A stretch of DNA of 17,607 bases from a virus (lineage: Duplodnaviria > Heunggongvirae > Uroviricota > Caudoviricetes), in the IMG/VR virus record IMGVR_UViG_2896607866_000008, positions 1-17,607 of that record, one strand, 5' to 3'. Positions within the stretch are counted from its first letter, which is position 1, and every line of letters starts with the position of its first letter. Positions 1-17,607 of this stretch are shown in pieces. The notes under the pieces were generated by a model. It was given only the letters and a program-made list of their open reading frames with translations. It ran no database searches and was not told the DNA's origin. Both the position numbers and the translations under genes were made by a program.

Positions 1-163
1 CACAACATCCGAGGACAGCATCGTCCGCCAGCCTACAGAAGTCCGGAAAGCCATGGAAGGTCGTTGGGAGGAGGTACGAATTCTATCATGCAAAAAATAC
101 GTAAAATCGATAACGCCTAGAAATCATTCAATACTCGCACTATCGAAAGTTTACCAGCCAACC

Positions 164-192
164 GCGGCACGTTCCTGCATACGACGTGCCGC
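164..192. other. Perfect 9-bp inverted repeat (GCGGCACGT / ACGTGCCGC) with an 11-nt loop, just past the stop of the 201-824 gene; possible terminator or protein-binding palindrome
   Basis: Read directly: 164-172 is the reverse complement of 184-192. No strong U-tract on either strand. Confidence 0.3.
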
Positions 193-200
193 AGCTTCTG

Positions 201-824
201 TTATTCCACGATAAAATTCCTAACCGAATTCAAATCCTTCAGACTATTCAGCTCTTCCTTCAGCTCCCGCTGACGGCGATAAATCTCATCGTTGCGATCG
301 ACCTGCGCCTGCACCATTGCTGCCGCCAGTTCTTCCAGTTCCGGCATCGACAGTTTCACCTGCTGATTATCGGCATCGCTCCACGCCATATGTGTTTGTG
401 CTGTGACAGATTTTGCCAGCATGACTACCGGGGACAGGCGGCCCAGTGAGTCGGGACCAGCATTCCAGATACGACCGTTCCATTCAAACGTGAACGGCTT
501 CGCCTCCTGTTCTGCGCGCCATGCTTCAATTTCCTGACGTCTGGCCTCTCTGGCCGCTTCCAGCATTTCTGGTGTCACAGTGAATGGGGCTATCTCACCC
601 CATTTGCCGCTTTGCAGTTCCTGCCAGATTTGCTGACCCGTCGGAGCGACATCATCAGCGGTGGCTGTGTAGGGGACTGCCTGGTCCCTGTCGTCAAAAA
701 AAACGTCACAGTCTACTGCGCCACTTTCGGTATAACGGGGATTAATGATTTTTTTAATTTCCACGATGCATTCCTCACGATGTGCGAATAAAAAGCCCGG
801 GCATTGCGCCAGAGACATGTGCAT
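201..824 (-). CDS. Putative phage tail fibre assembly/chaperone-like protein (207 aa)
   Basis: Long ORF immediately downstream of a side-tail-fibre-like gene; acidic coiled C-terminal half typical of fibre chaperones. Not a clear lambda Tfa match, so the family is inferred mainly from position. Start could be M1 or M3. Confidence 0.45.
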   Translation of the reverse strand: MHMSLAQCPGFLFAHREECIVEIKKIINPRYTESGAVDCDVFFDDRDQAVPYTATADDVAPTGQQIWQELQSGKWGEIAPFTVTPEMLEAAREARRQEIEAWRAEQEAKPFTFEWNGRIWNAGPDSLGRLSPVVMLAKSVTAQTHMAWSDADNQQVKLSMPELEELAAAMVQAQVDRNDEIYRRQRELKEELNSLKDLNSVRNFIVE

Positions 825-1128
825 CCGGCACCCCGGACAGGGCGCAATATGACCCCGGTAATGAATGCTCTGAACATCCCGTAATGAAAAATTGTGGGGA
901 TGCTATATACGTTCCGGTGGGAGTACTGGGCACTGAAATCCCCACCGGTCCCAGTCGTGAGCCTCTGTATGACTGCCCCCTGACAAGTCTGATGACTTTA
1001 TCACCGTCAGCTTCTCCCTGGTACGCAACAATAATCAGCCCGCCAATGTCAGGGTCTCCCCATCTGTTGCGGACAGAGCTCGCCACGATTCTGTAAATAA
1101 TATCTTCTGTGGTTATATTTATTTTCAC
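775..1128 (-). CDS. Hypothetical 117-aa ORF with GTG start overlapping the stop of the upstream fibre gene; possibly the out-of-frame C-terminal remnant of a once-longer Stf
   Basis: The ORF begins at a GTG overlapping the TGA of ORF 1125-2039 and ends inside the start of ORF 201-824. No recognisable motif. Confidence 0.2.
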   Translation of the reverse strand: MKINITTEDIIYRIVASSVRNRWGDPDIGGLIIVAYQGEADGDKVIRLVRGQSYRGSRLGPVGISVPSTPTGTYIASPQFFITGCSEHSLPGSYCALSGVPDAHVSGAMPGLFIRTS

Positions 1129-2039
1129 CCAGTCAGTCTGGATATGGGCCAGTAGCAGTAGCGGGTGTGATAAATGGGGCCGTTAATGCCGTAAAAAGTA
1201 AGGGATTTGGCTCTGTACCGCGGTTCTGTTGTCTCAGGGCGTGCATCAGTCCACCGGATGCTGAGCCCCCCTTCAAACCGTGTGTCGGGTATGATGATGC
1301 CGTAGGGGCCAGCAACGGAATATTCACCTGGCAGCGCATTCCTTACCCAGGCCAGGAAATCACTCTTAGTGTCAAAACGGATAACATCTTCAGGCAGAAA
1401 AGCACACCCAAAGCCGAATGCGCCGGGTATCGCCAGACGGCCTTTTGTCCGGTCGTAAATGTCGCTCTGTGCTTCCATCGTGGCCGCACTTTTCAGCCCC
1501 AGATTATCCCGGGACTTCTGTTGTGCCTTTTCGCCTGCTGCTGCGATTTCAGACAGATGGTTAGCCGTTTTCAGGGTGCCGGTCAGCGCAGCATCAATGT
1601 CATTTTTGGCCTGTTCTGCTGCGCGGGCATAACCTGCGGCTGCCGCCACATCCTGCGCCGTCTGCTGTGCGTTTCCGGCTGCGGCCCCGGCGCTCTGCTG
1701 CGCCTGCGCCACCATTTCCTCAAAGCGTTTGACGACATCCGGTTTCAGGTCGCCCTCATCAGGAGCAATCAGAAAGTCATTCAGCGTGCCGGGCTTTGAG
1801 TCCTCATATACAGCAATGTCGCCAACGTTGTACTCGTTGCGCCAGTCCTGTTTCAGATACACACCATATTTTCCAGTCCGCGCATGGAAACAGTATTCAC
1901 CATCGTTTCCTGTCATCACATCAGCAACAGTGTTCATCACCACTTCCGGGGTGTTTACCCGGGATTTCAGAATAATATGGTATCCGGACATGGGGATACC
2001 TGCGCCATCAGTCAGCGCACCTGATATCACTACAAACAT
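1125..2039 (-). CDS. Side tail fibre protein, lambda Stf-type N-terminal domain (304 aa, much shorter than full-length Stf proteins)
   Basis: N-terminus MFVVISGALTDGAGIP...VYEDSKPGTLNDFL matches the conserved prophage tail-fibre N-terminal domain of lambda Stf / Rac StfR (MAVKISGVLKDGTGKP...VYEDSQPGTLNDFL), followed by an Ala/Gln-rich coiled region. Full-length Stf proteins are several hundred residues longer. Confidence 0.65.
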   Translation of the reverse strand: MFVVISGALTDGAGIPMSGYHIILKSRVNTPEVVMNTVADVMTGNDGEYCFHARTGKYGVYLKQDWRNEYNVGDIAVYEDSKPGTLNDFLIAPDEGDLKPDVVKRFEEMVAQAQQSAGAAAGNAQQTAQDVAAAAGYARAAEQAKNDIDAALTGTLKTANHLSEIAAAGEKAQQKSRDNLGLKSAATMEAQSDIYDRTKGRLAIPGAFGFGCAFLPEDVIRFDTKSDFLAWVRNALPGEYSVAGPYGIIIPDTRFEGGLSIRWTDARPETTEPRYRAKSLTFYGINGPIYHTRYCYWPISRLTG

Positions 2040-2062: not shown

Positions 2063-2608
2063 TCAGGAAGAACCTTCCGGAGAGGCGGGCCATTCAATGG
2101 CGTTGTATGAGGATTTATCAGTGATGGTGCTGAAATCCATCGCCTGCAGCGATTTCGCGTAAATACGACAGGCTTTCAGCTTTTCTTTATCTTCGTCGCT
2201 GATTAACCCCAGCAGCAGGTCTTCTTCCCATTCCCCTGTCCGGGCACTGACCTGAGCCAGAAGGGCATCACGCTCATCTTCCGCTTTGAGTCTGTAGTCA
2301 AAGACAAATTCATCATTGCGGTAAAACCAGTAACCCGGCGCGGTAATCCGTCGGTTAGCGGTAATATCAGGAACTTCAATAACACTGGCATTGCGTGGCT
2401 CGATGCCTGTCACATCCTTACCGACCCACACCACGCGACCATCTCCGGTGTAAGCTATTTTTATTGTGTCGCTGGCGAAATTCTTCAGCTCTTCATACCA
2501 GTTTTTTCCGTCTTCTGAAAAAAGCCAGGAGACCGAATATCGTTTTGTCATCTGATATTGTTCTGCTGTTTTCGGATTACCCGCAGTAATATTTTTTAAA
2601 TGCAACAT
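2063..2608 (-). CDS. Tail fibre assembly protein (Tfa family chaperone, 181 aa)
   Basis: N-terminal MLHLKNITAGNPKT...WLFSEDGKNWYEE and C-terminal ...IEWPASP are characteristic of Tfa chaperones (lambda Tfa ends DIEWPALP). It sits directly downstream of the tail fibre gene. Confidence 0.75.
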   Translation of the reverse strand: MLHLKNITAGNPKTAEQYQMTKRYSVSWLFSEDGKNWYEELKNFASDTIKIAYTGDGRVVWVGKDVTGIEPRNASVIEVPDITANRRITAPGYWFYRNDEFVFDYRLKAEDERDALLAQVSARTGEWEEDLLLGLISDEDKEKLKACRIYAKSLQAMDFSTITDKSSYNAIEWPASPEGSS

Positions 2609-2610
2609 TG

Positions 2611-3996
2611 TTAAATACTCGCTACGTTATACCAGGTGCCATTAATCAGTTTTTGCAGTGGTCGGTAATACACACCGTCAACGTTATCCGCTGAGTTACG
2701 GCCGGTATCCGATATCGCCATCCCTGACAGCCCGTGTCCCGAAGGTGCGCAAAATCTCCACGAAACGGTGTTACTGCCGGGGCTGTAATACATTTCATGG
2801 CCATACCGTACATCCTGTACCCCCTCTGTTCGATATTTATAGCGGGCATCGAAGTTTCCGTAATTTAACGGAATTACCTGTCCGTTAACAGTGAACACTA
2901 TGCTGTTATCCGGGTTTCTCTGGCTGAAAAAATGCCAGCCTGAATCATCGCCAAGCTCTGCAACAACAGGCCTGGATGGATTACCCCACAAATAAAACGC
3001 TGCATTTTTCGTGGAGTTGTTGGCGCTGGATAACGTGAATTTTCTGGCAGTTCCGGCCTGAATATTCTTAAAAGCAATAGCCACTCCATTCTGAAAGCGG
3101 AATACACGCTGACTATTAGCATAAACATCCAGAATACCGTCTCCATTCTGTTTAAATCCGGTGTCATTATCACCAAGAACAATTGAATTCCCCCCCAGGG
3201 CGTTCTGAACGCCGATACCCAGCGCACCATTGACCTGCGAACCACCGCCAACAGACACTTTATGCGACATGGATATTTCACCCGTCCGCAAATTAATGGT
3301 GAACGGGCGCAGGGGACCAATATCGCCATTTTCCCCCTGACCTTCACTGGTGGGAATAAGGTGCAGGCACTCTTCCGAACGACGAAAAATCAGGCCAAAA
3401 GCTTCGTTGAAAATCCTCAGCGCATTAACACCACGGATTTTCAGCTCTCCGGTTATTTTATCGCCTTCCCGATGAACATAGCGTTGATCTGACTGCTCTT
3501 TACTGTAAACCTGAAGATTATCCCGTGCCGTCCCTTTATTCTGAAGGTCTGACAGATTGTTCTTCTGCCGCAGGAATATCCTTTTCGGATCCTCAAGAAG
3601 ATTTACCCAGCCCGCACTGTCGGAGCCTTCAGGATCGGTCAGGTTATCGTCTGTGGTATTCAGCCAGACCGCTGTTGTTGCGACTCCGGCGAGAATGGCT
3701 CCTTTTGCATATCCACCAATGGCCCCCGCAAAACCGGCATTATACGTGTACAAACCGCCAGCCTGGGCGAACCGTATTGCTGCGGTAATATCGTACATCA
3801 GACCGTTAAAATCCTTGCCGTGTGGCGGTATACCTCCCGCTGAGACCGCTGTCATGGTCACCGGAGGAAAACCTGAATCATACGCAGCATTACCGCTCTC
3901 TCTGGTCTGCTGTGTCGCCTTGTCCGGGATACGGTTTTTATCTCCGGTACTCGCAAAGGGGACCGCCAGCTGGCGGGGTTTATCACTGGCCTTCAT
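2611..3996 (-). CDS. Tail fibre protein with P2 gpH-like C-terminal receptor-binding region (461 aa)
   Basis: C-terminal block [50 protein letters not shown] ... [11 protein letters not shown] matches the conserved distal tail-fibre domain of P2 H-type fibres as I recall it. Its position between the baseplate I-like gene and Tfa fits. Confidence 0.7.
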
Positions 3997-4587
3997 TACG
4001 GGACTCCTTTAAAACTACTGAAACATAAACACCCGGCGGGGATGGCAGTGCACCCGACGACTGGATAATCGCCAGTTCTGCCAACGAGAGCGCGGACTCA
4101 AAGACGTAACTCATCCTCAGCCCACCATTATTCAGAACATAAGCCCGCCGTTTTTTTCCGAACATAAATCTCAGCATCCGGTTAATATCCGGAACGGAAC
4201 AGTCAGTAATGTTCGACATGGCTTTCATCAGTATCAGCCGCCGGTATACAGCATCAGACAGGTCAACAGTCCGGGTATCCGATTTTCCGTTGTAAAACGG
4301 TGCCTGATTAAACGGACAGGGATCATCCATTACCGGGGTGTCCATCCTGGACTCGCTGAAGCCAGGTAATTAAAATCGTCCTTTACCGTCAGCCGGCGAC
4401 TGACACCCACAATCTTTCCCCAGACATCAAGACCATACTTTTCTGCGGTATCGATGTTCCAGATAAGACCATAAAAATCACTGATAAAACTGTCGGGGGA
4501 AAGCGCTGCGTTAAAGCTGTTAATGAGGGCATTGAGTCGGGGGCTGGCAGCATACTGCGCAAGCACAGTGGCAGCCACATTCTGCAC
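3983..4587 (-). pseudogene. Baseplate/tail protein I-like (Mu gp48 / YmfQ-like), split into 85-aa and 120-aa ORFs by a frameshift near 4330-4345
   Basis: Two adjacent ORFs in different frames overlap by 16 nt; together about 200 aa, the size of YmfQ/gp48-type proteins, and located exactly between the J-like gene and the tail fibre. The upstream frame ends ...SPGWTPR-stop and the downstream frame starts MDTPVMDD. Confidence 0.5.
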
Positions 4588-4588
4588 G

Positions 4589-5830
4589 TTATGCCTCCTG
4601 GAGTTTCACACTGATATCCGACACATCCAGAACCGGAATCTCATCTATCCCGAAAGTGACAGCCGTTGTCCATGACGAACCGTCACGGCTCACAGTAAGG
4701 CCCAGAATATCAATATGTTCCGGATCGGTTTTGTAAATGCCGGCATAGTAGCGCCCGGCAGAGACAACAGAGGCAACCCTTGCCCGCAGACCACCATCTG
4801 TACCATTAAATGCGTCCAGCACGGATTGCTGTACCTGTCGGGTAATATCTGAAGGCAGGTAGTCACTTTTTTTCAGAGTCACACTGACATGCAGACTGAC
4901 GGGTTTGAGTGTCTGCCAGCTGATCACGTATTCAGGATACGGCGGATCGTACTCCTTATCTGCAACAGTGAACGTTGTGTTGCCATTCATATCAATACCC
5001 GGCGGAGCCTTACGCCAGATGGCCGCCGCGATATCTGCCGGGCTGCCGCCGTACACGCCAACATAAAGCGAACCGGGTGTTAATGGATACTGACTGACTC
5101 CGGCTTTTTGTTCTGTTTTTTTCGGATTATGGGTGACGTAAACATCCACCACGTTTTCCACCGTGGAGAGTATTTCACCCCGGATGGCTTCCAGAATATT
5201 CCGGGCATTACGGGCAACTGAATTACGTCGGCGGTTTTCAAAGTCCGCACGGGTTTCCTCATCGCTGCCCGGCACACCGGCACTGGCGTTAGTGACACCT
5301 GACCAGCCAGGTATTGCCTTATAAATTTTATTCAGCGTCCCCACAGGACAGCCGACGGGGCCGGTGGACAAATTCAGAAATACCGCATCAACCTGCCCTG
5401 ATGCGCCGATAGTGACGTCTGACTGACTGACATACTTATAACCGGCCTCATCCTGCGCCATACTGCCCGCCGGGATCAGCGTGCCAACCAGCCCGGTACA
5501 GGTCGCTGTTACTGTCGTACCTGTGGCCCCGCGGCGCTCCAGGAAATAAATCCTGCCTATTGCATCCTGAAAGCGACCACTGGAAAAGTCAGGGTTGATC
5601 TGGTTAACGATATACAGCAACTGATCGTTTTTATCCGCAATAATGGCGCTTTCGCTGGATGCAAGTTGTCCCTGCGGACTGCTCAGACTGGTACTCATGG
5701 CCCCGCCCAGCGCCGCCGAAAAATCAGCAAGCCTGCCGCTCAGAATATCCGCTTCATCCGGCACATTCAGCCCGCTATCCGAAATCTGTACAGCGGGCAC
5801 TGCGGTAGAAAAAGATTTATTTTCACTCAT
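4589..5830 (-). CDS. Baseplate J-like protein (Mu gp47 / P2 gpJ family, 413 aa)
   Basis: Size, position after a W/gp25-like gene and before the I-like gene, and overall resemblance to baseplate J family proteins. ATGA-type overlap with the upstream gene. Confidence 0.7.
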   Translation of the reverse strand: MSENKSFSTAVPAVQISDSGLNVPDEADILSGRLADFSAALGGAMSTSLSSPQGQLASSESAIIADKNDQLLYIVNQINPDFSSGRFQDAIGRIYFLERRGATGTTVTATCTGLVGTLIPAGSMAQDEAGYKYVSQSDVTIGASGQVDAVFLNLSTGPVGCPVGTLNKIYKAIPGWSGVTNASAGVPGSDEETRADFENRRRNSVARNARNILEAIRGEILSTVENVVDVYVTHNPKKTEQKAGVSQYPLTPGSLYVGVYGGSPADIAAAIWRKAPPGIDMNGNTTFTVADKEYDPPYPEYVISWQTLKPVSLHVSVTLKKSDYLPSDITRQVQQSVLDAFNGTDGGLRARVASVVSAGRYYAGIYKTDPEHIDILGLTVSRDGSSWTTAVTFGIDEIPVLDVSDISVKLQEA

Positions 5831-6183
5831 AGCAGTACCGTAAAAATGTCATTATTGGTATCTGTAATACGCAGCACACCTGTTACTGTCCGGGTTTGAT
5901 CAGCTGTGACCAGGCAGACAGCGGCGCTCACGGTCGGCAGTTTAAGTGCTTCCTGTTGCAGAGTGGCATTCACCAGTTGTTTGCCGGGCCAGTGTCCGAG
6001 GATGCGTGGCCAGTAAGGTATGCCAGCCGTTGAGTCGTACCAGCACTCCCCCAGAAAAGTACTGCACGCACACGCCACATCCTGAGCTACCGCATGGGGA
6101 TTATCAGTAATGGCAAGATTTCCGGTATCATCAAGCAGGATATCCCATGTCCCGGTGTCAAGAAGAAGTGATCGTGACTGCAT
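5827..6183 (-). CDS. Baseplate wedge protein (GPW/gp25-like, Mu gp46-like, 118 aa)
   Basis: Small ORF between the spike V-like and J-like genes, 4-nt overlap with the J-like gene; conserved gene order V-W-J-I-H-G. Confidence 0.55.
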   Translation of the reverse strand: MQSRSLLLDTGTWDILLDDTGNLAITDNPHAVAQDVACACSTFLGECWYDSTAGIPYWPRILGHWPGKQLVNATLQQEALKLPTVSAAVCLVTADQTRTVTGVLRITDTNNDIFTVLL

Positions 6184-6195
6184 GTTTTCTCCTGT

Positions 6196-6873
6196 TTACC
6201 GGGGTCCCTGCGTGGTTGAGCCGCCGGACTCAACGCCGCCGTGAACGTGGTTTCCAAAATCAATACCCCCGATGTTCGAACCGCCGGAAAGCCTGGACTG
6301 CCCGGTAACGTCAAGCCCCTTACTGACGGCGGTATCGCCGTTCAGCGCAATTTGTGGTGAATTAACGGTGAAGCTTTTCGGCGCATTAATCACACCCTCA
6401 GGCGCGGATATCTCCACTTTCCAGGGAGATACAATCCGTATCTGGTTGTCATCAAATACCACAAACTGGACGGGATCACCGTTGAGCACGCCACCCAGCC
6501 AGATGGCATCAGCATAATTATGGGTACGCTTTGATCCCGGCATCGCAGCCTGACGCGTGGCTTTTACCGCACTGATATCCCGATCGCAGATGGCAAGAAA
6601 ACCGATATCCCCCACATGTGGCGGCATAATCACCGCATTACCGCCCCCCTGTAGTCGCCATACGGGAATGTTATAAATCACCTCATGTTCAACCGGGGAA
6701 CCGTCTGCTGCAACGCCCATTACCATCGGTCGGGCCTCAATAAATCCCTCTTCCACGGCTACCACCCGTCCCAGAGTGATAAACGCATGACGTCCGAGAA
6801 ACTGCCGCAGCATAAAGTCCTGTGCATTGATTTCGCTGTTCACGTCTGTCGGGTTACTGAGTGGTTGTGCCAT
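6196..6873 (-). CDS. Baseplate spike / assembly protein V-like (Mu gp45-like, 225 aa)
   Basis: Gly-rich C-terminus with HxH motif (GIDFGNHVHGGVESGG) typical of phage central spike proteins; position upstream of the W-like gene. Confidence 0.65.
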   Translation of the reverse strand: MAQPLSNPTDVNSEINAQDFMLRQFLGRHAFITLGRVVAVEEGFIEARPMVMGVAADGSPVEHEVIYNIPVWRLQGGGNAVIMPPHVGDIGFLAICDRDISAVKATRQAAMPGSKRTHNYADAIWLGGVLNGDPVQFVVFDDNQIRIVSPWKVEISAPEGVINAPKSFTVNSPQIALNGDTAVSKGLDVTGQSRLSGGSNIGGIDFGNHVHGGVESGGSTTQGPR

Positions 6874-7723
6874 TTTCTTCAGCCCTCATCATGGTACAGT
6901 TGGAACTCCACGGACCGCCCACGGTTCGCGAAGTAATGGTGTGTATCACCCCTGTGATCGTATAATCGCCCGTCATATCAGGCAGTGACGATTCCAGATG
7001 CGCTGGCCTGCCAGTAAAGAGATCGGGGCAGAATATCGTGGTGGCGCTGAGTCCGGTCATGGTGTAAACCGGATAGCCAGTCAGTCCGTGATCCGGCGAA
7101 ATCAGTACCGGCGGAATATTCCGGTTCTGCCCTTTCGGCCAGATGGTGACTTTCTCCACATTCCCCAGATCAATGTTAATATCGGCGGCTGAAGCGACAT
7201 CCAGCATTTGTTGTACAACATTACCGGAAAAATGCGGGTCAGACAGACTGCGGCTGACCCCCTGGTTTTCAAATCCAAGCCCGACAGTTGACGCCAGCGC
7301 ACGGATAATATCTGCAACCGCAACATCGCCCTTTGCGCTGAAATCTGCCGCCGGCTGATTACGCAGATTAAAATGAATCTGTCCTGTCAGAATGAGCGGA
7401 ATATCCGGCGCCTGGTTGTAGTCGGCGTATGCATCAGTAATATCACCTTCAAAAATAAGCCGCCCGTCGGCCCACAGCCGCATTTTATTTGCGGTACTCT
7501 GCTCCTGTCGCCACACACCGCGCCAGCTTAAATTCGTCATATGCGCCGGTGACATTCCCCAGATATACAGCGTGATTTGTGTACCAGCCACCCCTCCATA
7601 TACGGCAATACTGGCAAAACAGCTTGCGTCGGTAATGGTCAGCATATTGCCCTGGCCATTACCAAACGTTCGTCCGTCTGAAAGAGTGAACTCCACCGTT
7701 ATTTTATGTTGTCTGTAGCTCAT
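6854..7723 (-). CDS. Phage tail/baseplate-associated protein (possible hub-like, 289 aa)
   Basis: Long ORF in the tail module immediately upstream of the spike gene, 20-nt overlap with it. No diagnostic motif recognised; assignment is by context. Confidence 0.4.
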
Positions 7724-8022
7724 ATCAGTTCCTCAGGTAACAGCCAGTAGAGCCGGTACCGGGATCCGAGCCCCCGCCAGTCAGGGTCACTATTCCCCTC
7801 CGTGTCGGTAAAAAACAGGTCCCCCTGAAACGGCAGGTATCCGTACCGGACAATCCGGTTATTATTCAGACACAGCACGCCATACAGGCACGGTTCACCA
7901 TTAACAATGATATCGATATACATCCCCGTAGTACGCTGATTCAGGCGAATGGTGCAGACCTGAGCGCCCAGTGTCACCGTAAACTGCTGGGCTTTAACGG
8001 GAGATAAAACAATTTCCAGCAT
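7720..8022 (-). CDS. Hypothetical phage protein (100 aa)
   Basis: ORF with a 4-nt ATGA-type overlap to the downstream 289-aa gene, suggesting translational coupling. Confidence 0.4.
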
Positions 8023-8288
8023 CAGGTGATCCCCCTGTTCGTGGCGCTTCGTCTGTCAGCGTCTGACGGTTGTGTCACCGACGCCGTAACTGGCTGCGTT
8101 TTAACCGATGCGGCCCCTTTTGCTTTATCGTTGTCCGTGGGAGACGACTTATCCGTACTTCCCACTGACACCTCTCCTGTATTCATTACGGTCTGAAATA
8201 CCGCAGTAACCGTCAGTAAGGTCGGACCACTCATCGTCTTTACGCGGATCGCTACGCCAGTGAAACGTAAACACCGGGATTTTTCCAC
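8022..8288 (-). CDS. Small hypothetical ORF with low-complexity Ser/Thr/Asp-rich tail; start uncertain (M1 8288, M19 8234 or M35 8186)
   Basis: ORF in a different frame overlapping the 3' end of the truncated terminase ORF. It may be a small YmfR-like gene or an out-of-frame remnant. Confidence 0.25.
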
Positions 8289-9018
8289 TGTGCCGCTTCT
8301 GTGCGAAGGGGTTGTTCATACCGTTAACCGATGAGAGATCGATACGACATCGGGTTGTCTGGGAAAGCGCGGCATCAATAAGTAATGGTCGCTGGAGAAA
8401 AGCAGCCTCATCCACAAAATAAAGGGTCGTACGGTCACCACGACCGATATTATCGCCAGCCTCACCTTTGATAACCGCGCCAGTTTCAGGAAACTCAACA
8501 CGCATATATGGCGCGTGCTTCTTCTCGCTCCACGAACCGCGAAACTCTACAGGTAGTGTTTCCACGAACTTGCGCGCCTTCCAGAACAATGCTTTCGGGT
8601 CACCGGTGCTGTCGACGTATTCCTCTTTACGGGAGCCGAAACCGATAACCATTTCTTTGTTGAAGAGACAAAGCGAGCAGGCCAGTCCGATCGCGGTCCA
8701 ACTGAGCCCCATTTCACGGGATTTTTCGGTAATACCATTCTCCCGATTGCTCCAGCGTTTCATAATCCAGTGGATCCACTCCTCCTGCTTAGGGAAGAGT
8801 AAAAACGGAATGGTCACCGGCAGGCCATAATCAATATTACGCGGGTCCGTTGTCATGCCCCAGTCGATAATGAACTGAGCCGGGTTGGTACGGTAAAACT
8901 GTTTTAGTGCAGGCAATATTTCAGGATTCTGGCGAATGCGCTGTAGGCGTTCCATCCGCCATTCAAAAACCATCTGGTAATCAGGATGTTTAAAATCGAA
9001 GGGGAATGGTAACGGCAT
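8149..9018 (-). CDS. Terminase large subunit, N-terminal ATPase domain only (289 aa; nuclease domain absent), likely a truncated remnant
   Basis: Walker-B-like LYFVDEAAF and downstream SSVNG motif typical of TerL ATPase domains. The ORF stops after 289 aa with no nuclease domain, and the next genes are baseplate genes rather than portal/capsid. Confidence 0.55.
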
Positions 9019-9020
9019 AC

Positions 9021-9253
9021 TTAGCCCATCATTTTTCTATACACCTCTGCGGCCTGCTCAGGCGTTAATTTGGTAATTTCTGTTCTGACTGGTCCTCCGT
9101 CAGCGCCAGTCACTTCATTTTTGACGTTGTCTTTAAACGCCTGAACAGAAACATGGCGCCCAAGCAACTCAAGGTTTTTAACCTTATCAGGCCATTTGAT
9201 TTTCTTCAGAAGTGCGGCGCTATCTGCGGATACCATCTCCACGACATCCATTC
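9021..9253 (-). pseudogene. 3' fragment (about 77 codons) of a phage gene upstream of terminase large subunit, 5'-truncated by IS911
   Basis: The reading frame runs from inside the IS911 left end (so the N-terminal 24 codons are IS-encoded) to a stop 3 nt before the TerL start. Identity unknown; a small-terminase or DNA-binding protein is a guess. Confidence 0.35.
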
Positions 9254-9325
9254 TGAAGTGGCACACTGAATTTGGCCACCTGAACAGAGGTGATATGCTC
9301 ACCTCAGAACAACACAGGTGCTCCA

Positions 9326-10494
<1,169 letters not shown>

Positions 10495-10669
10495 CCACTT
10501 CAATCCCCCATGTCACATAGCTTGAACTGAATCAGATCCTTCACAAGCTGCTCAGCCTTTTTAATGGCCTTCTTCTCTTTCTTCCGACGAGTCATGAGAG
10601 CGCTATGAGGTAGCCTGAGTTTAACGGACACTCCTTCCTGAAATAGAATGGCATCAGAAGGAGCTAATA

Positions 10670-10972
10670 ATGAGCAGAAAAACCCAACGTTACTCTAAAG
10701 AGTTCAAAGCCGAAGCTGTCAGAACGGTTCTTGAAAATCAACTTTCGATCAGTGAAGGCGCTTCCCGATTATCCCTTCCTGAAGGCACTTTAGGACAATG
10801 GGTTACCGCCGCCAGAAAAGGGCTCGGTACTCCTGGTTCCCGCACGGTGGCTGAACTGGAATCTGAAATTCTGCAACTGCGTAAGGCGTTAAATGAAGCT
10901 CGCCTTGAGCGAGATATATTAAAAAAAGCAACAGCGTATTTTGCACAGGAGTCGCTGAAAAATACGCGTTAA
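10670..10972 (+). CDS. IS600 transposase OrfA (100 aa)
   Basis: MSRKTQRYSKEFKAEAVRTVLENQLSISEGASRLSLPEGTLGQWV...; an A7G slippery run lies near its 3' end. Confidence 0.9.
   Translation: MSRKTQRYSKEFKAEAVRTVLENQLSISEGASRLSLPEGTLGQWVTAARKGLGTPGSRTVAELESEILQLRKALNEARLERDILKKATAYFAQESLKNTR
10921..10928 (+). promoter_or_regulatory. IS600 putative -1 frameshift slippery run (AAAAAAAG)
   Basis: Read directly near the end of orfA, with orfB in the -1 frame downstream; frameshifting is inferred by analogy with other IS3-family elements. Confidence 0.5.
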
Positions 10973-11007
10973 TCGAACAATGGCGACAACAATTTCCCAT
11001 TGAAGCG

Positions 11008-11826
11008 ATGTGTCAGGTATTTGGTGTATCCAGGAGCGGTTATTACAACTGGGTACAGCATGAACCCTCAGACAGAAAACAAAGTGATGAGCGGCTAAAA
11101 CTGGAGATTAAGGTGGCACATATCCGCACTCGCGAAACATATGGAACCCGGCGGCTCCAGACGGAGCTGGCAGAGAATGGCATCATCGTTGGTCGTGACC
11201 GACTGGCACGTCTTCGTAAGGAGCTAAGGCTACGCTGTAAGCAGAAACGCAAGTTCAGAGCGACTACGAACCCGAACCACAATCTGCCAGTTGCGCCAAA
11301 TCTGCTGAACCAGACGTTCGCTCCTACAGCACCAAATCAGGTCTGGGTGGCGGACCTGACGTATGTTGCCACACAGGAGGGATGGTTGTACCTCGCTGGC
11401 ATCAAAGATGTTTATACGTGCGAAATTGTCGGCTACGCCATGGGAGAGCGCATGACAAAAGAGCTGACAGGTAAAGCCCTGTTTATGGCGCTCAGGAGCC
11501 AGCGCCCACCTGCCGGGCTAATCCACCACTCTGATCGAGGTTCACAGTACTGCGCATACGATTACCGGGTCATACAGGAGCAGTCTGGTCTGAAAACATC
11601 AATGTCGCGTAAAGGTAACTGTTACGACAACGCTCCGATGGAAAGCTTCTGGGGAACGCTGAAAAATGAGAGCCTGAGCCACTATCGTTTTAATAACCGG
11701 GATGAAGCCATCTCAGTAATACGGGAATACATTGAGATTTTCTACAATCGTCAGCGTCGTCACTCTCGTCTGGGGAATATCTCCCCGGCAGCCTTCAGGG
11801 AAAAATATCATCAGATGGCTGCTTAA
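11008..11826 (+). CDS. IS600 transposase OrfB (DDE domain, 272 aa from first Met)
   Basis: ...NQVWVADLTYVATQEGWLYLAGIKDVYTCEIVGYAMG...HHSDRGSQYCA... typical IS3-family DDE transposase. Confidence 0.9.
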   Translation: MCQVFGVSRSGYYNWVQHEPSDRKQSDERLKLEIKVAHIRTRETYGTRRLQTELAENGIIVGRDRLARLRKELRLRCKQKRKFRATTNPNHNLPVAPNLLNQTFAPTAPNQVWVADLTYVATQEGWLYLAGIKDVYTCEIVGYAMGERMTKELTGKALFMALRSQRPPAGLIHHSDRGSQYCAYDYRVIQEQSGLKTSMSRKGNCYDNAPMESFWGTLKNESLSHYRFNNRDEAISVIREYIEIFYNRQRRHSRLGNISPAAFREKYHQMAA

Positions 11827-12142
11827 AAAAAGAACAAATGGTAGTGTCCGCTATTGCCAGTACACCTCAGTAATCCATTTCGACTATAACTGACAGGTCA
11901 TCACGACGTATGACTGCGTATTTGCTACTAAATAGTTTCTTTATTTTTTCCACGATGCCTCCAAGTTTATAAGTACAAACGGTTATATCCACATAGAGAC
12001 AAAAATATTAATCTGAAAAACATTTATTTCACGCCGTATATTTGATTGTTTAATGTGCAAGTACAATGACTTTTATTTTTTGTTGTGTATATAATCAAAT
12101 ATATGGTTATTTTTCACCCTGCGTATTCAGCACGCAACAAAA

Positions 12143-12228: not shown

Positions 12229-12384
12229 TTACTCCTCAGGTTCGTAAGCTGTGAAGACAGCGACCTCCGTCTGGCCGGTTCGGATTCGTACCTCGCAGAG
12301 GTCTTTCCTCGTTACCAGTGCCGTCACTATGACGGTTAAACAGATGACGATCAGGGCGATTAACATCGCCTTTTGCTGCTTCAT
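12229..12384 (-). CDS. hokD: Hok/Gef family type I toxin (51 aa), HokD/RelF-like
   Basis: Translation MKQQKAMLIALIVICLTVIVTALVTRKDLCEVRIRTGQTEVAVFTAYEPEE read directly; matches the Hok/Gef consensus and, to my recollection, E. coli HokD (RelF) specifically. Strong SD (AGGAG) 8 nt upstream. Confidence 0.85.
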   Translation of the reverse strand: MKQQKAMLIALIVICLTVIVTALVTRKDLCEVRIRTGQTEVAVFTAYEPEE

Positions 12385-12441
12385 AGCCTGCTTCTCCTTG
12401 CCTTTCGGCACGTAAGAGGCTAACCTACATTTGTGAGACAT
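12229..12441 (-). CDS. Mok-like overlapping reading frame (70 aa, in-frame N-terminal extension of Hok)
   Basis: An in-frame ATG 19 codons upstream of the hok start (MSHKCRLASYVPKGKEKQA-) with a GAGG SD; the same architecture as mokC/hokC, which share a stop codon. Confidence 0.55.
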   Translation of the reverse strand: MSHKCRLASYVPKGKEKQAMKQQKAMLIALIVICLTVIVTALVTRKDLCEVRIRTGQTEVAVFTAYEPEE

Positions 12442-12723
12442 AGATTGGGCCTCAGATTAATGTTAAGCGTCTTGCAGGACGCGTAATGTTAACTGGGGCT
12501 TTTCTCTGTCTGCCTTACAGTGGCATGCCCGAGGCAGACAGCCTCAAGCACCCGCAGCAATCTTACCGATACCGATAAGAAAACGCTATTTTTTATTGCC
12601 AGCACCTTCTATCCAGGCTAATTTATCTGCGTCAGAACGGCGCAATGCGCTCGCCTGAGATACGTTTACTTGCCATGGTAACAACAGGTAACGGCAATTG
12701 CTGTTTCTGTTTTGTTTCCTTCA

Positions 12724-12758: not shown

Positions 12759-12842
12759 TTAACCCCAACGGCAAATCGAATACACCACCAGCGCCACCGC
12801 CATCGCAATTCCTACCGTGGTGAATGCCTCAGGCCAGGTCAT
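12759..12842 (-). CDS. Small hydrophobic peptide (27 aa, MTWPEAFTTVGIAMAVALVVYSICRWG), translationally coupled to the DUF551 gene
   Basis: Not in the ORF track (too short). Its ATG overlaps the TGA of the upstream gene (AATCAATGACC), a GGAGGT SD sits 6 nt upstream, it has a single predicted transmembrane helix, and it is followed at once by a terminator. Confidence 0.35.
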   Translation of the reverse strand: MTWPEAFTTVGIAMAVALVVYSICRWG

Positions 12843-13204
12843 TGATTCACCTCCTGCGGTGGTTCCGGTAGCGGCATCCAGTGAGTTGAGCTCTCTACTT
12901 CAACGCCGTCTTTGTCCACAAAAGCCATCTTATTCCCGCCACGAGTGGGGCAAAAAACCTTATCCCAGGAACCGGGGAATACATTCCCGAGATCATCGAG
13001 AAGAATCACATCGCAATATTCAGCAGGAACTGCATCACTACAGCTTATCCAGCCAGCCAGAGTTACCGGAGAGTTGCCAGCCTTACGCATGGCCATTTCC
13101 ACGATTTCAACCATATCTCCTGGTGGAATTTTACAAAGTTGCCCAATACATTTCTGCTGCCTGGCATATTCGAGAATGTGCTCCAATTTGGTTCGATTAA
13201 TCAT
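12839..13204 (-). CDS. DUF551-family phage protein (121 aa)
   Basis: C-terminal ...THWMPLPEPP motif characteristic of DUF551 proteins of lambdoid prophage early regions; TAATG overlap with the upstream gene. Confidence 0.55.
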   Translation of the reverse strand: MINRTKLEHILEYARQQKCIGQLCKIPPGDMVEIVEMAMRKAGNSPVTLAGWISCSDAVPAEYCDVILLDDLGNVFPGSWDKVFCPTRGGNKMAFVDKDGVEVESSTHWMPLPEPPQEVNQ

Positions 13205-13869
13205 TATTTATCTCCCTTAAGCATGGCAGCGCGGCAGGCGTTCCAGCCATCAACATAATCAAACGTATTACTATCGTTTGGCCCGATTTCATCCGGCACT
13301 ATCGGCTCTGGTTGGATAGTGACGTTGGCAAAGGCAGCACGCAAACCGGTTTTAATTTCTTCGATTTCATCAGAGCCAAGCGATGAATCTGACAGTGCGT
13401 GATGGAATGCGTAAGCCATGTCGTCGTTTACTGCAACCGGCACTGCCGGCGCTGCGTAAAGCGGTGTTATATCTGCCCGAAAATCACATGCTTTATGCAG
13501 TCGTACCCAACGCTCAACTTCCGCTTTGTCAAAATATATAGCAGTGAACGTATTAGATTCCTGGTCAACTTGAGTAAACGTCACCTTCCACGCTACAGCT
13601 ACGGCTTTCCATCCATCAGGTTGTCGCATTCGCGGGGCAGCATAAAGCTCATGCATTCCATCAGGCAGCGAGTGACCCACATACTCACCGAACCCGTCAA
13701 TACACATGCCCCCATCTTCAACAATGCATTCCGCTACAGGCTCTGCTTCCAGTGATGCCAGAGCGATAAGCGCCAGTTCACGAATTTCACCGCCGTCTAT
13801 ATCGTCAATATCATCGCGGCCAGAAATGTTAGCCAGCCATTGCAGTCGCTCTTTGGTAATAGTGGTCAT
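13204..13869 (-). CDS. Hypothetical phage protein (221 aa, acidic, two LYAAP-containing segments)
   Basis: ORF tightly coupled on both sides (ATGA overlap with HNH upstream, TAATG with DUF551 downstream); SD GAAGGGG. No recognisable catalytic motif. Confidence 0.5.
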   Translation of the reverse strand: MTTITKERLQWLANISGRDDIDDIDGGEIRELALIALASLEAEPVAECIVEDGGMCIDGFGEYVGHSLPDGMHELYAAPRMRQPDGWKAVAVAWKVTFTQVDQESNTFTAIYFDKAEVERWVRLHKACDFRADITPLYAAPAVPVAVNDDMAYAFHHALSDSSLGSDEIEEIKTGLRAAFANVTIQPEPIVPDEIGPNDSNTFDYVDGWNACRAAMLKGDK

Positions 13870-14231
13870 GCCGTAGCCCCTTCTTGATATTTTTCAAACC
13901 AGAACACAACCGGGTCAGATTTCATTTCAACCAATCCCATACGAACCAGCGCTTTGCCTTTCCCGGACGCAAGGAATTCACGACGACCATCACTGATAAT
14001 TCGTCGATAATCTTCCAGGCTACTGCAATGCTTGTGCAGATTGCATGGGTGGCATTCTGGTACCATGTTGGATATATCGTCACGTTCCTGGTGAAGCATA
14101 TTTCCATCAAAACGAATGACCGGTTTTACATGGTCTGCATGCCACTTTTCGCCAAGTTCGCAGCCGCAATAAGCGCAGCGACCACCGAACTTCATGCGCA
14201 GTTCTGCACGTTGTTTTTTCGTCAGTGCCAT
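13866..14231 (-). CDS. HNH endonuclease (121 aa from MALTKK; the ORF track shows a longer 151-aa frame from 14321)
   Basis: CAYCGCELGEKWHADHVKPV....CHPCNLHK is an HNH motif with two Cys pairs. The start at 14231 is preferred because of an AAGGA SD and the immediately preceding stop of the 72-aa ORF. Confidence 0.75.
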   Translation of the reverse strand: MALTKKQRAELRMKFGGRCAYCGCELGEKWHADHVKPVIRFDGNMLHQERDDISNMVPECHPCNLHKHCSSLEDYRRIISDGRREFLASGKGKALVRMGLVEMKSDPVVFWFEKYQEGATA

Positions 14232-14232
14232 A

Positions 14233-14451
14233 TCAGCTTTCCTTATACGGATTAATTTTATTGTGCAGTGTGTTGAATGACGCCCATACCACGTCGTTAT
14301 ACAATTCAATAACTGGCTCAATTATTTTTCCGATTATCCAGACAAAAATTAGCGGGGATATCGGTGTCATCAACACGATAAACAGAATGAGAAACAGGAA
14401 TTCTGTTGTTCTACTCTTTCGCGGATATTTTTTTCTAAATAATGTAACCAT
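14233..14451 (-). CDS. Small predicted membrane protein (72 aa), coupled to the HNH gene
   Basis: Hydrophobic stretch FLFLILFIVLMTPISPLIFVWIIGKII; its stop is 1 nt before the HNH ATG. The SD is weak, so coding status is uncertain. Confidence 0.35.
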   Translation of the reverse strand: MVTLFRKKYPRKSRTTEFLFLILFIVLMTPISPLIFVWIIGKIIEPVIELYNDVVWASFNTLHNKINPYKES

Positions 14452-14543: not shown

Positions 14544-14769
14544 TTATTCAGTTCTGGATTTTGTCGCCCTGCGTATCCGCGCTTTCGCATTACGCTCAAT
14601 CTGTATCAGCTTTTCTATATTTCTCCGCCTTTCCTGTTCCTCCTGGCGCAATAGTCTTACATCATCTGCCAGTCTGGTTTCTCTTTTTGCCACAGAGAGC
14701 ATCCAGTCAAACGGCTCCACAACCGCACCGCAGATTTTACAGCGGACCTGACGCTCTTTTTCGTCAACC
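14544..14769 (-). pseudogene. 3' fragment (75 codons) of an unknown gene, 5'-truncated by IS911 copy 2
   Basis: Open frame ...VDEKERQVRCKICGAVVEPFDWMLSVAKRETRLADDVRLLRQEEQERRRNIEKLIQIERNAKARIRRATKSRTE-stop runs directly out of the IS911 right end at 14770. Confidence 0.35.
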
Positions 14770-14777
14770 TGAAGTGG

Positions 14778-15931
<1,154 letters not shown>

Positions 15932-16000
15932 TGGAGCACCTGTGTTGTTCTGAGGTGAGCATATCACCTCTGTTCAGGTGGCCAAATTCAGTGTGCCACT

Positions 16001-16857
16001 TCAGGTATTTGGTGTATCCAGGAGCGGTTATTACAACTGGGTACAGCATGAACCCTCAGACAGAAAACAAAGTGATGAGCGGCTAAAACTGGAGATTAAG
16101 GTGGCACATATCCGCACTCGCGAAACATATGGAACCCGGCGGCTCCAGACGGAGCTGGCAGAGAATGGCATCATCGTTGGTCGTGACCGACTGGCACGTC
16201 TTCGTAAGGAGCTAAGGCTACGCTGTAAGCAGAAACGCAAGTTCAGAGCGACTACGAACCCGAACCACAATCTGCCAGTTGCGCCAAATCTGCTGAACCA
16301 GACGTTCGCTCCTACAGCACCAAATCAGGTCTGGGTGGCGGACCTGACGTATGTTGCCACACAGGAGGGATGGTTGTACCTCGCTGGCATCAAAGATGTT
16401 TATACGTGCGAAATTGTCGGCTACGCCATGGGAGAGCGCATGACAAAAGAGCTGACAGGTAAAGCCCTGTTTATGGCGCTCAGGAGCCAGCGCCCACCTG
16501 CCGGGCTAATCCACCACTCTGATCGAGGTTCACAGTACTGCGCATACGATTACCGGGTCATACAGGAGCAGTCTGGTCTGAAAACATCAATGTCGCGTAA
16601 AGGTAACTGTTACGACAACGCTCCGATGGAAAGCTTCTGGGGAACGCTGAAAAATGAGAGCCTGAGCCACTATCGTTTTAATAACCGGGATGAAGCCATC
16701 TCAGTAATACGGGAATACATTGAGATTTTCTACAATCGTCAGCGTCGTCACTCTCGTCTGGGGAATATCTCCCCGGCAGCCTTCAGGGAAAAATATCATC
16801 AGATGGCTGCTTAAAAAAAGAACAAATGGTAGTGTCCGCTATTGCCAGTACACCTCA
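16001..16857 (+). mobile_element. IS600, 5'-truncated partial copy (lacks about the first 408 bp including the left end and orfA); junction with the IS911 left end at about 16001-16003
   Basis: Sequence from GGTATTTGGTGTATCCAGGAGCGG onward is co-linear with copy 1 from 11013 onward; the right end ...GTACACCTCA is at 16857. Confidence 0.85.
16004..16814 (+). pseudogene. IS600 orfB lacking its orfA partner and frameshift context (the ORF-track protein MAKFSVPLQ... has an IS911-derived chimeric N-terminus)
   Basis: The OrfB sequence is identical to copy 1 from QVFGVSRSGYY onward; the upstream 26 nt of the ORF belong to the IS911 end. Confidence 0.7.
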
Positions 16858-17293
16858 GGACGCCTGCATCAAAACGTTCAGAAACGACATCGGTCAAACC
16901 ATAATCAATGGTAAGCTGAATATCAATTTCAGGATGCGATTTCAGGAATGTGCGCATGGCTGGTAACAATATCGTTTTTGCTGCATGTTCTACAGTAGTA
17001 ATACGTATTGTCCCGGATGGGCGGTTCTGCAGATCGCTCAGGGATGTCAGGGCAGAATCTATGTCATGCAATATAGGGCCAAGAACAGACAAAAGATGCT
17101 CGCCCGCTTCAGTGGGTACAACGCTGCGCGTGGTTCGCGTCAGAAGCCGCAATCCCAATCGTTCTTCTATACGGCGCACTATCTGGCTTAAAGCTGACTG
17201 CGCCATGCTCAGGCGGGCTGCTGCGCGAGTGAAGCTACGCTCCTCTGCAACGACGACAAACGCCATCAGATCAGCGATTTCTTCACGCTTCAT
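16858..17293 (-). pseudogene. LysR-family transcriptional regulator, 3'-truncated by the IS600 insertion (about 145 native codons remain)
   Basis: N-terminal HTH MKREEIADLMAFVVVAEERSFTRAAARLSMAQSALSQIVRRIEERLGLRLLTRTTRSV is the classic LysR signature; the frame runs into the IS600 right end at 16857, giving a chimeric tail. Confidence 0.75.
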
Positions 17294-17430
17294 TCAGTAT
17301 CTCCATACAATCTATTAATCATTTAAATGATAGGTCTAATCATGATTTAGGGTCTAATCAACTTAATGATCAATATCTATAGTGATATCACCAACCGTCA
17401 AAACGAACCGACAACTCCATGAGGAACTGA

Positions 17431-17566
17431 ATGATGAATAATAAAGTCAGCTTCACTAACAGCAATAATCCAACCATCTCTTTGTCTGCAGTGATCTATT
17501 TCCCTCCAAAATTTGATGAAACCCGTCAGTATCCGGCAATTGTGGTATCTCACCCAGGTGGGGGCG
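17431..17566 (+). pseudogene. Dienelactone hydrolase-like / alpha-beta hydrolase gene, 5' 45 codons only, interrupted by IS2
   Basis: MMNNKVSFTNSNNPTISLSAVIYFPPKFDETRQYPAIVVSHPGGGV, then the reading frame enters the IS2 terminal repeat. Divergent from the LysR gene. The hydrolase family assignment is from memory of similar N-termini. Confidence 0.5.
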
Positions 17567-17607
17567 TGGATTTGCCCCTATATTTCCAGACATCTGTTAT
17601 CACTTAA
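17567..17607 (-). mobile_element. IS2 terminal inverted repeat (right end, element continues beyond the window)
   Basis: TGGATTTGCCCCTATATTTCCAGACATCTGTTATCACTTAA matches the IS2 right inverted repeat as I recall it; only 41 bp fall in the window. Confidence 0.7.

Follow-up and report, generated by a model that had tools for sequence, protein, structure and literature searches.

The 17,607-nucleotide stretch of DNA that we analyzed (the window), which is 100% identical to Shigella flexneri CP024470.1, very probably carries the internally deleted late operon of a defective S. flexneri prophage, the phage part of the sit island, in which frameshifts have been accumulating since the deletion. 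Alignment to intact relatives showed one clean deletion of ~13.28 kb, which starts at TerL codon 265 and ends at codon 168 of the gene for a Dit-like baseplate protein. Our references were two full-length prophages of enteroinvasive E. coli (EIEC) CFSAN029787, both 99.3–99.7% identical to the window: L001, an intact full-length prophage from which we took the deletion coordinates, and a sit-carrying copy in the same genome (L014/L015), which spans intR/ttcA to sitABCD/uspF/ompN and is collinear with the window up to sitD at 97–99.5% identity. Such EIEC sisters (in CFSAN029787 at the ttcA/Rac site with sitABCD, and as copies with ipaH cargo in CFSAN029787 and FDAARGOS_943) share the window's gene order, and their nucleotide identity to it extends across the terS/TerL N-terminal region and the 4.8-kb baseplate block; unlike the window, they retain the 13.3-kb segment spanning the TerL nuclease domain through the tape measure, and they also have integrase genes and those for lysis, regulation and replication. 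Single frameshifts are already present in some of them: L001 has one in a head gene, L014 one in the tape measure. Measured against L001, L012, L014 and L015, the window lacks head, neck, sheath, tube, tape-measure, lysis, late-regulator, replication and integrase genes, and with these essential modules missing the element is, to all appearances, a defective (cryptic) prophage. Each gene of interest is encoded on the minus strand.

From 9253 to 8226 the window aligns to L001 20005–21032 at 99.6% identity (the 3′ end of terS and the first 264 TerL codons), and from 8229 to 3459 it aligns to L001 34313–39084 at 99.67%; the intervening 13,284 bp (L001 21029–34312) are absent. This synteny comparison with intact prophages, which the original prediction had proposed, bore out its claim that the head, sheath, tube and tape-measure genes are missing. 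Base-by-base comparison with L001 21029–21032 and 34313–34316 placed the junction at 8226..8229, where a 4-bp microhomology (TGGT) is present in both parents. The deleted stretch holds 15 whole genes, portal through tape measure. Its head side comprises the nuclease half of TerL, the portal, a head-morphogenesis protein, DUF2213, a Gp24 cement protein and the capsid protein; its tail side comprises head-tail connector genes, the tail terminator, the sheath (DUF3383 / E217_gp31), the tube (E217_gp32) and chaperones; and its 3′ part comprises an SLT-domain tape measure and codons 1–168 of the gene for the Dit-like baseplate protein. One illegitimate-recombination event at the TGGT microhomology excised the ~13.28 kb and, in doing so, joined the TerL ATPase domain to baseplate DNA in a different reading frame.

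Shigella genomes are IS-rich and prone to misassembly, and with four IS copies within the window one might suspect that the junction arose in assembly or is an accident private to one strain. However, no repeat or IS lies in the junction, and it was present in all ten of the independent S. flexneri loci that we compared (L002–L011), which comprise two complete chromosomes (one of them, L003, identical to the window), one draft assembly and seven independent Logan read-set assemblies. Because it recurs in 10 independent assemblies, we rejected an artefact, to which we would give practically no credence. None of the 5,426 complete E. coli genomes searched carried the junction; it is real and lineage-specific.

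On the 5′ side of the junction lies the remnant of TerL (codons 1–263, the ATPase domain, at 8230..9018), which is 99.6% identical to the 5′ half of a 539-aa TerL gene and differs from the intact relative by one nonsynonymous and two synonymous changes. With the TGGT overlap included, the remnant corresponds to residues 1–264 of 539. It forms part of a chimeric 289-aa ORF (8149–9018), the last 25 codons and stop of which (8149..8225) are baseplate-gene DNA read out of frame (9018 mod 3 = 0, 8288 mod 3 = 2). Neither this ORF nor the intact 539-aa TerL had a match in Pfam or NCBIfam, and we used PHROGs and PDB sequence searches in their place. The ORF matched the large-terminase profiles phrog_2 (2.3e-13) and phrog_5989 (8e-08), consistent with the original prediction that it contains only an ATPase-like domain. 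A PDB search with the N-terminal 264 residues returned only non-significant matches to T4 gp17 (pairwise E = 0.39), which we used solely for placing motifs: the remnant keeps a Walker A-like SREMGLS, a Walker B LYFVDE and a motif III LSS, corresponding to SRQLGKT, IYIDE and TTT in T4 gp17. Residues 267/294–528 of the intact protein align to terminase nuclease domains (8dkr at 1.8e-30; Sf6 gp2 residues 209–469 at 4e-21). Because the break follows residue 264 and the nuclease domain occupies residues 267–528, exactly the nuclease domain was removed; the TerL DNA stops after codon 264, and this RNase-H-like domain is absent from the window. The domain boundary, for which a homology check had been suggested, therefore coincides with the ATPase/nuclease border. 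By homology, the 289-aa ORF is a TerL fragment rather than a functional TerL, and not, as might have been the case, a complete small protein of another family.

Directly upstream of the TerL ORF lies a 3′ fragment of terS (9021..9253), the C-terminal ~77 codons of an intact 184-aa TerS; the portal gene is deleted. The fragment is 99.6% identical to L001 20005–20237 and covers Terminase_2 profile positions 108–139 (it also matches phrog_51), a profile that intact TerS matches at 1e-37. An orphan TerL ATPase-domain protein (264 residues plus the 25-residue tail) could conceivably be expressed in a new role, such as blocking packaging by superinfecting phages with related TerS/portal. Its ORF is open with its own start codon kept, the Walker A, Walker B and motif III residues are retained, and its sequence is identical across all strains examined. 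However, clonal descent accounts for this identity, the lid and nuclease parts are gone, and the upstream terS is interrupted by IS911 with no promoter-like site upstream; a promoter and terminator scan of 7600–9700 gave counts no higher than in shuffles. We consider the chance of such a role to be slim indeed.

On the other side of the junction, the Dit-like 'phage baseplate protein' gene, which encodes 236 aa when intact, survives as its last 68 codons (8022..8225). The remnant matches phrog_1830 positions 143–210 of 229 and is 99.67% identical to L001 34313–34520; the deleted part is the N-terminal 168 codons, and the intact protein matches Dit_like at residues 64–182. An ORF called at 8022–8288 was rejected as a gene, since it combines these C-terminal 68 codons with a spurious GTG start inside TerL DNA. 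The baseplate plug gene follows (7720..8022, 100 aa, intact; Pam3_gp18 at 1.7e-22 and phrog_349), starting 127 bp past the stop of the TerL ORF, in agreement with the claim that baseplate genes come within a few hundred bp of it. The intervening ORFs are accordingly a baseplate-gene fragment and the plug, and do not encode portal or capsid functions.

The genes that come next are intact: a baseplate hub (6854..7723, 289 aa; E217_GP41 at 6e-08, phrog_196 at 4.5e-63), a gpV-like central spike with an apex motif (6196..6873, 225 aa; PF18352 and the GpV Apex motif), a sheath-initiator or gpW-gp25-like wedge protein (5827..6183, 118 aa; phrog_120 at 1.2e-36, with PF10934 Sheath_initiator on an identical product) and a Baseplate J/gp47-like wedge protein (4589..5830, 413 aa; Baseplate_J at 5e-12). 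The last of these is intact in the window; strain 2850-71 (L004) has lost 1 bp at position 5122, which splits the gene. The DUF2612/Phage_Wedge1 gene (3983..4587) is frameshifted by a change of GGG to GG at 4364 into ORFs of 85 and 120 aa, which match PF11041 positions 1–73 and 79–180; in one S. flexneri locus, L011, the deletion junction is present and DUF2612 is unshifted.

The module then continues with a tail fibre (2611..3996, 461 aa, open; annotated as tail fiber in S. flexneri) and its assembly chaperone Tfa (2063..2608, 181 aa, open; Caudo_TAP at 7.9e-27). A second tail fibre (775..2039; phage_tail_N at 7e-70) encodes 422 aa when intact and is split here into ORFs of 304 and 117 aa. 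Comparison with the intact gene (L014 18077–19345) traced this frameshift to a 4-bp deletion of a CTGG repeat unit at ~1133, which is also present in another S. flexneri locus (L002). The last phage gene before sitD is a DUF4376 gene (201..824, 207 aa; DUF4376 at 1.2e-16). The original prediction of a largely intact V-W-J-I-H-Tfa module with one frameshift thus had the gene order right, and the frameshift count should be two (at 4364 and ~1133).

Its labels hold as functional analogies and misname the type of module. As in P2 V-W-J-I-H-G, the functional order is spike, W/gp25-like protein, J, a second wedge protein, fibre and fibre chaperone, and both a GpV apex motif and Baseplate_J are present. 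In contrast to P2, however, DUF2612/Phage_Wedge1 (PF11041) occupies the 'I' slot with no match to the P2 gpI family, plug and hub genes lie ahead of the spike, and DNA similarity to P2 H is limited to a 280-bp fibre segment at 82%. The module is instead of the E217/Pam3 type: Pfam families built on the baseplate structures of E217 (a Pseudomonas phage) and Pam3 (a cyanophage) match the plug and the hub, and further families of this origin match the sheath, tube and connector proteins of the full-length relatives. This relationship is distant, with no phage record matching the block at the DNA level (megablast against 50,697 records); by J protein, the closest sequenced phages, at 45–57% identity, are Pantoea PA-1 and Klebsiella temperate myophages.

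With head genes gone and baseplate, spike and fibre genes kept, the locus superficially resembles R-type pyocin loci, and one could imagine that the host has domesticated the module and that it works as a particle without a head, be it a tailocin, a device of the contractile-injection kind or a free adhesin complex of baseplate and fibres. Against this, the tail terminator and the Dit-like hub component are deleted, the lysis cassette and late-regulatory region are gone, and one wedge gene is frameshifted. Because the 13.3-kb deletion took the sheath, tube and tape-measure genes and no such ORFs occur elsewhere in the window, we rejected a tailocin; domestication of this kind seems exceedingly unlikely.

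Two frameshifts (DUF2612 and the second fibre) therefore mark the late module in the window, and a third (J) marks it in another S. flexneri strain. Because L011 carries the junction with an intact DUF2612, at least the DUF2612 frameshift is younger than the deletion, and the restriction of the J deletion to L004 indicates that this frameshift, too, followed it. The S. flexneri branches carried 6 nonsynonymous and 4 synonymous substitutions (omega ~0.5, not different from neutral, p = 0.27), with a ratio of 4:1 in the window's own lineage, as compared with 14:16 among the full-length relatives (omega ~0.28, p = 0.0008 versus neutral). Thus, the dN/dS analysis that had been suggested as a check fits neutrality, on counts too few to decide: Fisher tests against the intact relatives gave p = 0.34–0.72, 10 substitutions being too few to separate neutrality from moderate constraint. 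Donation to infecting phages and decay had both been offered as fates for the retained genes; with three frameshifts in S. flexneri and purifying selection not detectable, decay is the better supported, even though eight of the 11 late genes (or gene pairs) that follow the junction remain open (plug, hub, spike, W-like, J, fibre, Tfa and DUF4376).

The other proposed fate, in which baseplate and fibre genes are selectively kept as a recombination reservoir from which phages of the family, whether infecting or co-resident, acquire fibre, Tfa or wedge genes through homologous recombination and change host range, draws on the 461-aa fibre, Tfa and most baseplate ORFs being open and on the mosaic structure of the fibre. 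In the C-terminal half of that gene, identity to otherwise 99.7%-identical relatives falls to 79–93% past position 3459, and the fibre region shares 77–88% segments with phiP27, Rac-SA53, P2 gpH and Yersinia phages. Exchange partners also exist, since sister prophages of the same family were found twice in single EIEC genomes. Set against these points are the three frameshifts, the substitution ratio compatible with neutrality and the lack of any obvious host selection for keeping genes to the benefit of phages; moreover, a near-identical copy of neither the baseplate block nor the fibre region occurs in any of the 50,697 phage records, the best fibre-region matches reaching 83–88% over at most 57% of the query. 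We therefore regard a selectively maintained reservoir as very unlikely and favor decay.

The remaining upstream losses map to the ends of IS911 and IS600. IS911 (9254..10502, plus strand; 9254–9300 match the annotated IS911 of phage Sf6 at 100%, and the element has IS3-family orfA/orfB ORFs) adjoins and truncates terS at 9254, and the upstream limit of the original prediction, 9253, is exactly its edge. At this point ~0.68 kb of prophage (L001 19328–20004, the 5′ part of terS) is missing. IS911 and IS600 insertions and adjacent deletions, separate from the main deletion, removed the 5′ end of terS and most early genes, along with the DUF1133/1364/1367 genes, the tRNA genes and the lysis cassette; the lysis, regulatory and early regions were lost in this way.

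In the identical chromosome, sitD, sitC and sitB begin ~200 bp past window position 1, and sitABCD is thus flanked by phage genes and IS elements, both IS911 and IS600 lying in the window. The element is therefore the phage part of the already known S. flexneri sit island, a Rac-site prophage with sitABCD. As summarized in PMC7545054 from Fisher et al. 2009, S. flexneri is where the sit PAI was first described, and the island is reported to be phage-associated and unstable, rich in insertion sequences, deletions and rearrangements. The majority of phage regions in S. flexneri are described as cryptic prophages riddled with deletions (PMC6424224).

The orthologous full-length element sits between ttcA/intR and uspF/ompN, which is the Rac site, and it thus shares its ttcA-side integration site with K-12 Rac. 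K-12 Rac, e14, DLP12 and Qin are defective lambdoid remnants with tail-fibre and Tfa genes from which most morphogenesis genes are gone; e14 lies in icd and keeps int/xis and the pin invertase. Unlike in these cryptic prophages, the structural module here is of the contractile-tail E217/Pam3 type rather than lambda-type. The original comparison with e14 was correct as to a cryptic element and otherwise only a loose analogy: the element lies at the Rac site with sitABCD, and no integrase, excisionase or invertase was found among the window ORFs.

The ancestor of the element would have been a ~46-kb temperate phage whose Rac-type lambdoid early region was integrated beside ttcA, whose structural module was of the contractile-tail E217/Pam3 type, and which carried sitABCD as cargo behind the last tail gene. 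The surviving phage genes, which have lost their late-regulatory region, are probably functionless, and neither a virion nor a tailocin should be possible. Their persistence may reflect an evolutionarily recent deletion and adjacency to sitABCD, which is presumably under selection, as a large deletion of phage genes would risk taking sitABCD too.

It is very unlikely that the surviving genes are useful, whether through the TerL ATPase as a packaging-interference (superinfection-exclusion) factor or through fibre/Tfa as a host-range cassette recruited repeatedly by EIEC/Shigella prophages. The finding has little weight outside annotation, in which the proper label for both the chimeric 289-aa ORF and the 88-aa ORF is pseudogene fragment, not 'TerL protein' or 'hypothetical protein'. 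The TGGT junction, being free of IS, is a convenient marker for the S. flexneri lineage and a clean case of non-IS illegitimate recombination beside IS-mediated erosion in Shigella genome reduction. As context for the spread of virulence loci, one temperate myophage family brought either sitABCD or ipaH into EIEC/Shigella lineages.

The window matches the Shigella flexneri chromosome CP024470.1 at 100% identity over all 17,607 bases (positions 1412–19018 of L003, the locus in that chromosome), and all genes relevant to the finding lie on the minus strand. When we searched 5,426 complete E. coli genomes by megablast with window positions 7600–9300, the matches invariably ended at 8226, and no genome covered at least 80% of the query. 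The best match was L001, a near-identical full-length prophage of enteroinvasive E. coli (EIEC) CFSAN029787, in which TerL is followed by genes for the portal, head-morphogenesis, DUF2213, Gp24, capsid, connector, terminator, sheath, tube, chaperone and tape-measure proteins and then by the window's baseplate genes. Aligned by blastn, the window and L001 shared two collinear blocks, 9253–8226 (L001 20005–21032, 99.6%) and 8229–3459 (L001 34313–39084, 99.67%), which overlap by TGGT, a sequence found at both parental sites, so that 13,284 bp are absent from the window. This synteny comparison confirmed the original prediction that the head, sheath, tube and tape-measure genes are missing, as they lie within the absent segment of L001, and that baseplate genes closely follow a truncated TerL. 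The 4-bp microhomology at the junction, without an insertion sequence (IS), is a mark of illegitimate recombination. Searching with the exact chimeric protein yielded ten independent S. flexneri loci (in two complete chromosomes, one draft assembly and seven read-set assemblies), and because all ten contained the junction, the deletion is real and lineage-wide; the TerL–baseplate junction was found in 0 of the 5,426 complete E. coli genomes.

The TerL-flagged ORF (289 aa, 8149–9018) matched large-terminase PHROGs (phrog_2, 2.3e-13). Intact TerL in L001 has 539 aa, of which residues 267/294–528 aligned with solved terminase nuclease domains (8dkr, 1.8e-30; Sf6 gp2 residues 209–469, 4e-21). Since the window retains residues 1–264, the break falls at the ATPase/nuclease boundary, in agreement with the proposal that only an ATPase-like domain remains. 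Walker A-like (SREMGLS), Walker B (LYFVDE) and coupling (LSS) motifs are present in the retained part, and a weak alignment places them opposite those of T4 gp17; beyond residue 264 the ORF continues for 25 out-of-frame codons over baseplate DNA. An overlapping 88-aa ORF (8022–8288) was rejected as a gene: its GTG start falls within TerL DNA, and its last 68 codons are the C terminus of a Dit-like baseplate protein that has 236 aa when complete (phrog_1830 positions 143–210; the intact protein matches Dit_like). Counts of promoter-like and terminator-like sites around the TerL fragment were not above those in shuffled sequence.

Downstream lie genes for a baseplate plug (7720–8022), hub (6854–7723), gpV-like spike (6196–6873), W/gp25-like sheath initiator (5827–6183) and baseplate J (4589–5830), followed by a DUF2612 wedge gene in two pieces (3983–4587), a tail fibre (2611–3996), a Caudo_TAP chaperone (2063–2608), a second fibre gene in two pieces (775–2039) and a DUF4376 gene (201–824). 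A functional tailocin-like device is ruled out, as the required sheath, tube and tape measure all lie within the deletion.

The retained genes had been suggested either to be decaying or to persist as a recombination reservoir for infecting phages. The fibre region is mosaic, as is usual for fibre genes: past 3459, identity to relatives that are otherwise 99.7% identical drops to 79–93%, and segments of the fibre region match phiP27, Rac-SA53, P2 gpH and Yersinia phages at 77–88%. However, no near-identical fibre or baseplate copy was present among the sequenced phages searched, and the closest phage homologues of J were 45–57% identical, so that nothing speaks positively for a recent donation. 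The 4.8-kb baseplate block had no DNA match in 50,697 phage records and is rare in E. coli, being present in 9 of the 5,426 complete genomes (≥99.5% identity in each, apparently EIEC-type), whereas many E. coli genomes and vB_EcoM-606R2-like phages have the terS/TerL-N segment at ~93% identity, indicating a phage family strongly mosaic between packaging and tail modules.

Decay fared better. In place of the single frameshift originally reported in the module we found two: GGG to GG at 4364 in DUF2612, and loss of one CTGG unit near 1133 in the second fibre gene (422 aa split into 304 + 117). Because L011, another S. flexneri junction locus, has an unshifted DUF2612, and a 1-bp deletion in J occurs in strain 2850-71 (L004) alone, the DUF2612 and J frameshifts postdate the 13.3-kb deletion. 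We also ran the proposed dN/dS analysis over 3,633 nonsynonymous and 1,167 synonymous sites, with L001, L012 and L013, all of them full-length, as the relatives used to polarise substitutions. Nonsynonymous to synonymous counts were 4 : 1 on the window's own lineage (omega ~1.3, p vs neutral 1.0), 6 : 4 on all S. flexneri branches (omega ~0.5, p = 0.27) and 14 : 16 in the full-length relatives (omega ~0.28, p = 0.0008). The S. flexneri counts are compatible with neutrality, but their difference from the relatives' counts is not significant (Fisher p = 0.34–0.72); with this test underpowered, the case for decay rests on the frameshifts. L016, a sister ipaH-carrying prophage, has intact sheath, tube and tape-measure genes but a hub gene broken by an IS110-family element (L016 8369–10687), an independent inactivation route; contigs with this truncated hub protein bear the label S. 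sonnei. Erosion is thus independent and haphazard across lineages.

The early region is also eroded, with no integrase, repressor or replication genes in the window. An IS911 copy (9254–10502, plus strand) replaces the 5′ part of terS, leaving a small-terminase fragment (9021–9253; L001 19328–20004 absent). Just 104 bp (10502–10605) separate it from a complete IS600 (10606–11873, plus; orfA 100 aa, orfB 272 aa), beside which ~4.2 kb was lost, including DUF1367/1364/1133 genes, four tRNA genes, and holin, lysozyme and Rz genes. Nothing else of the early region survives beyond a hok/sok locus and a few ORFs. The hok/sok-type locus (12229–12553, minus) combines a Hok/Mok-frame ORF of 70 aa with a full-length match to the sok RNA (118 bits; gathering score 59), and could counter segment loss. 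Nearby on the minus strand are a DUF551 ORF (12839–13204), a 221-aa ORF without a family match (13204–13869) and a 151-aa HNH/NinG-like endonuclease ORF (13866–14321); EIEC reference prophages matched 12839–14321 in short stretches only (83–95% identity), making this early region a different mosaic variant. A second, inverted IS911 (14770–16004, minus; small internal deletion, orfB 274 aa vs 279 aa) closes off a 4.3-kb segment holding IS600 and the early-gene remnants. In two S. flexneri loci (L002 and L004) one IS911 links the 14769–17607 side straight to terS; the structure of this segment thus varies between S. flexneri strains. Adjoining IS911 at 16004, a 5′-truncated IS600 (16001–16858, plus) cuts a LysR-family regulator gene (16811–17293), of which the N-terminal half (160 aa) is left.

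Next after the DUF4376 gene in the source chromosome come sitD, sitC and sitB (window 1–200 and beyond, L003 19019–20870). EIEC CFSAN029787 has a second copy of the phage with sitABCD after its DUF4376, extending from intR/xisR beside ttcA to sitA beside uspF/ompN; on the K-12 map, this is where Rac is attached. There, sitABCD is terminal cargo of a full-length phage; the sister copies L001, L012 and L016 have ipaH genes at this position. The window is collinear throughout with the sit-carrying element (9253–8226, 99.3%; 8229–3459, 99.5%; 2889–1, 97.1%, as far as sitD; three small matching pieces in the early region), which identifies it as the phage part of the S. flexneri sit island. According to a review, the sit pathogenicity island was first found in S. 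flexneri and is unstable, being rich in rearrangements, deletions and insertion sequences (PMC7545054).

The observation is thus confirmed and its core interpretation supported, with three corrections. The reading as a cryptic element stands; the corrections concern the number of frameshifts, the likenesses drawn to e14 and P2, and what the element is, namely a prophage at the Rac site with sitABCD as cargo. This makes it a textbook example of a cryptic prophage, of a kind already well known from the S. flexneri genome, whose ~15 phage regions are mostly cryptic, deletion-ridden prophages (PMC6424224).
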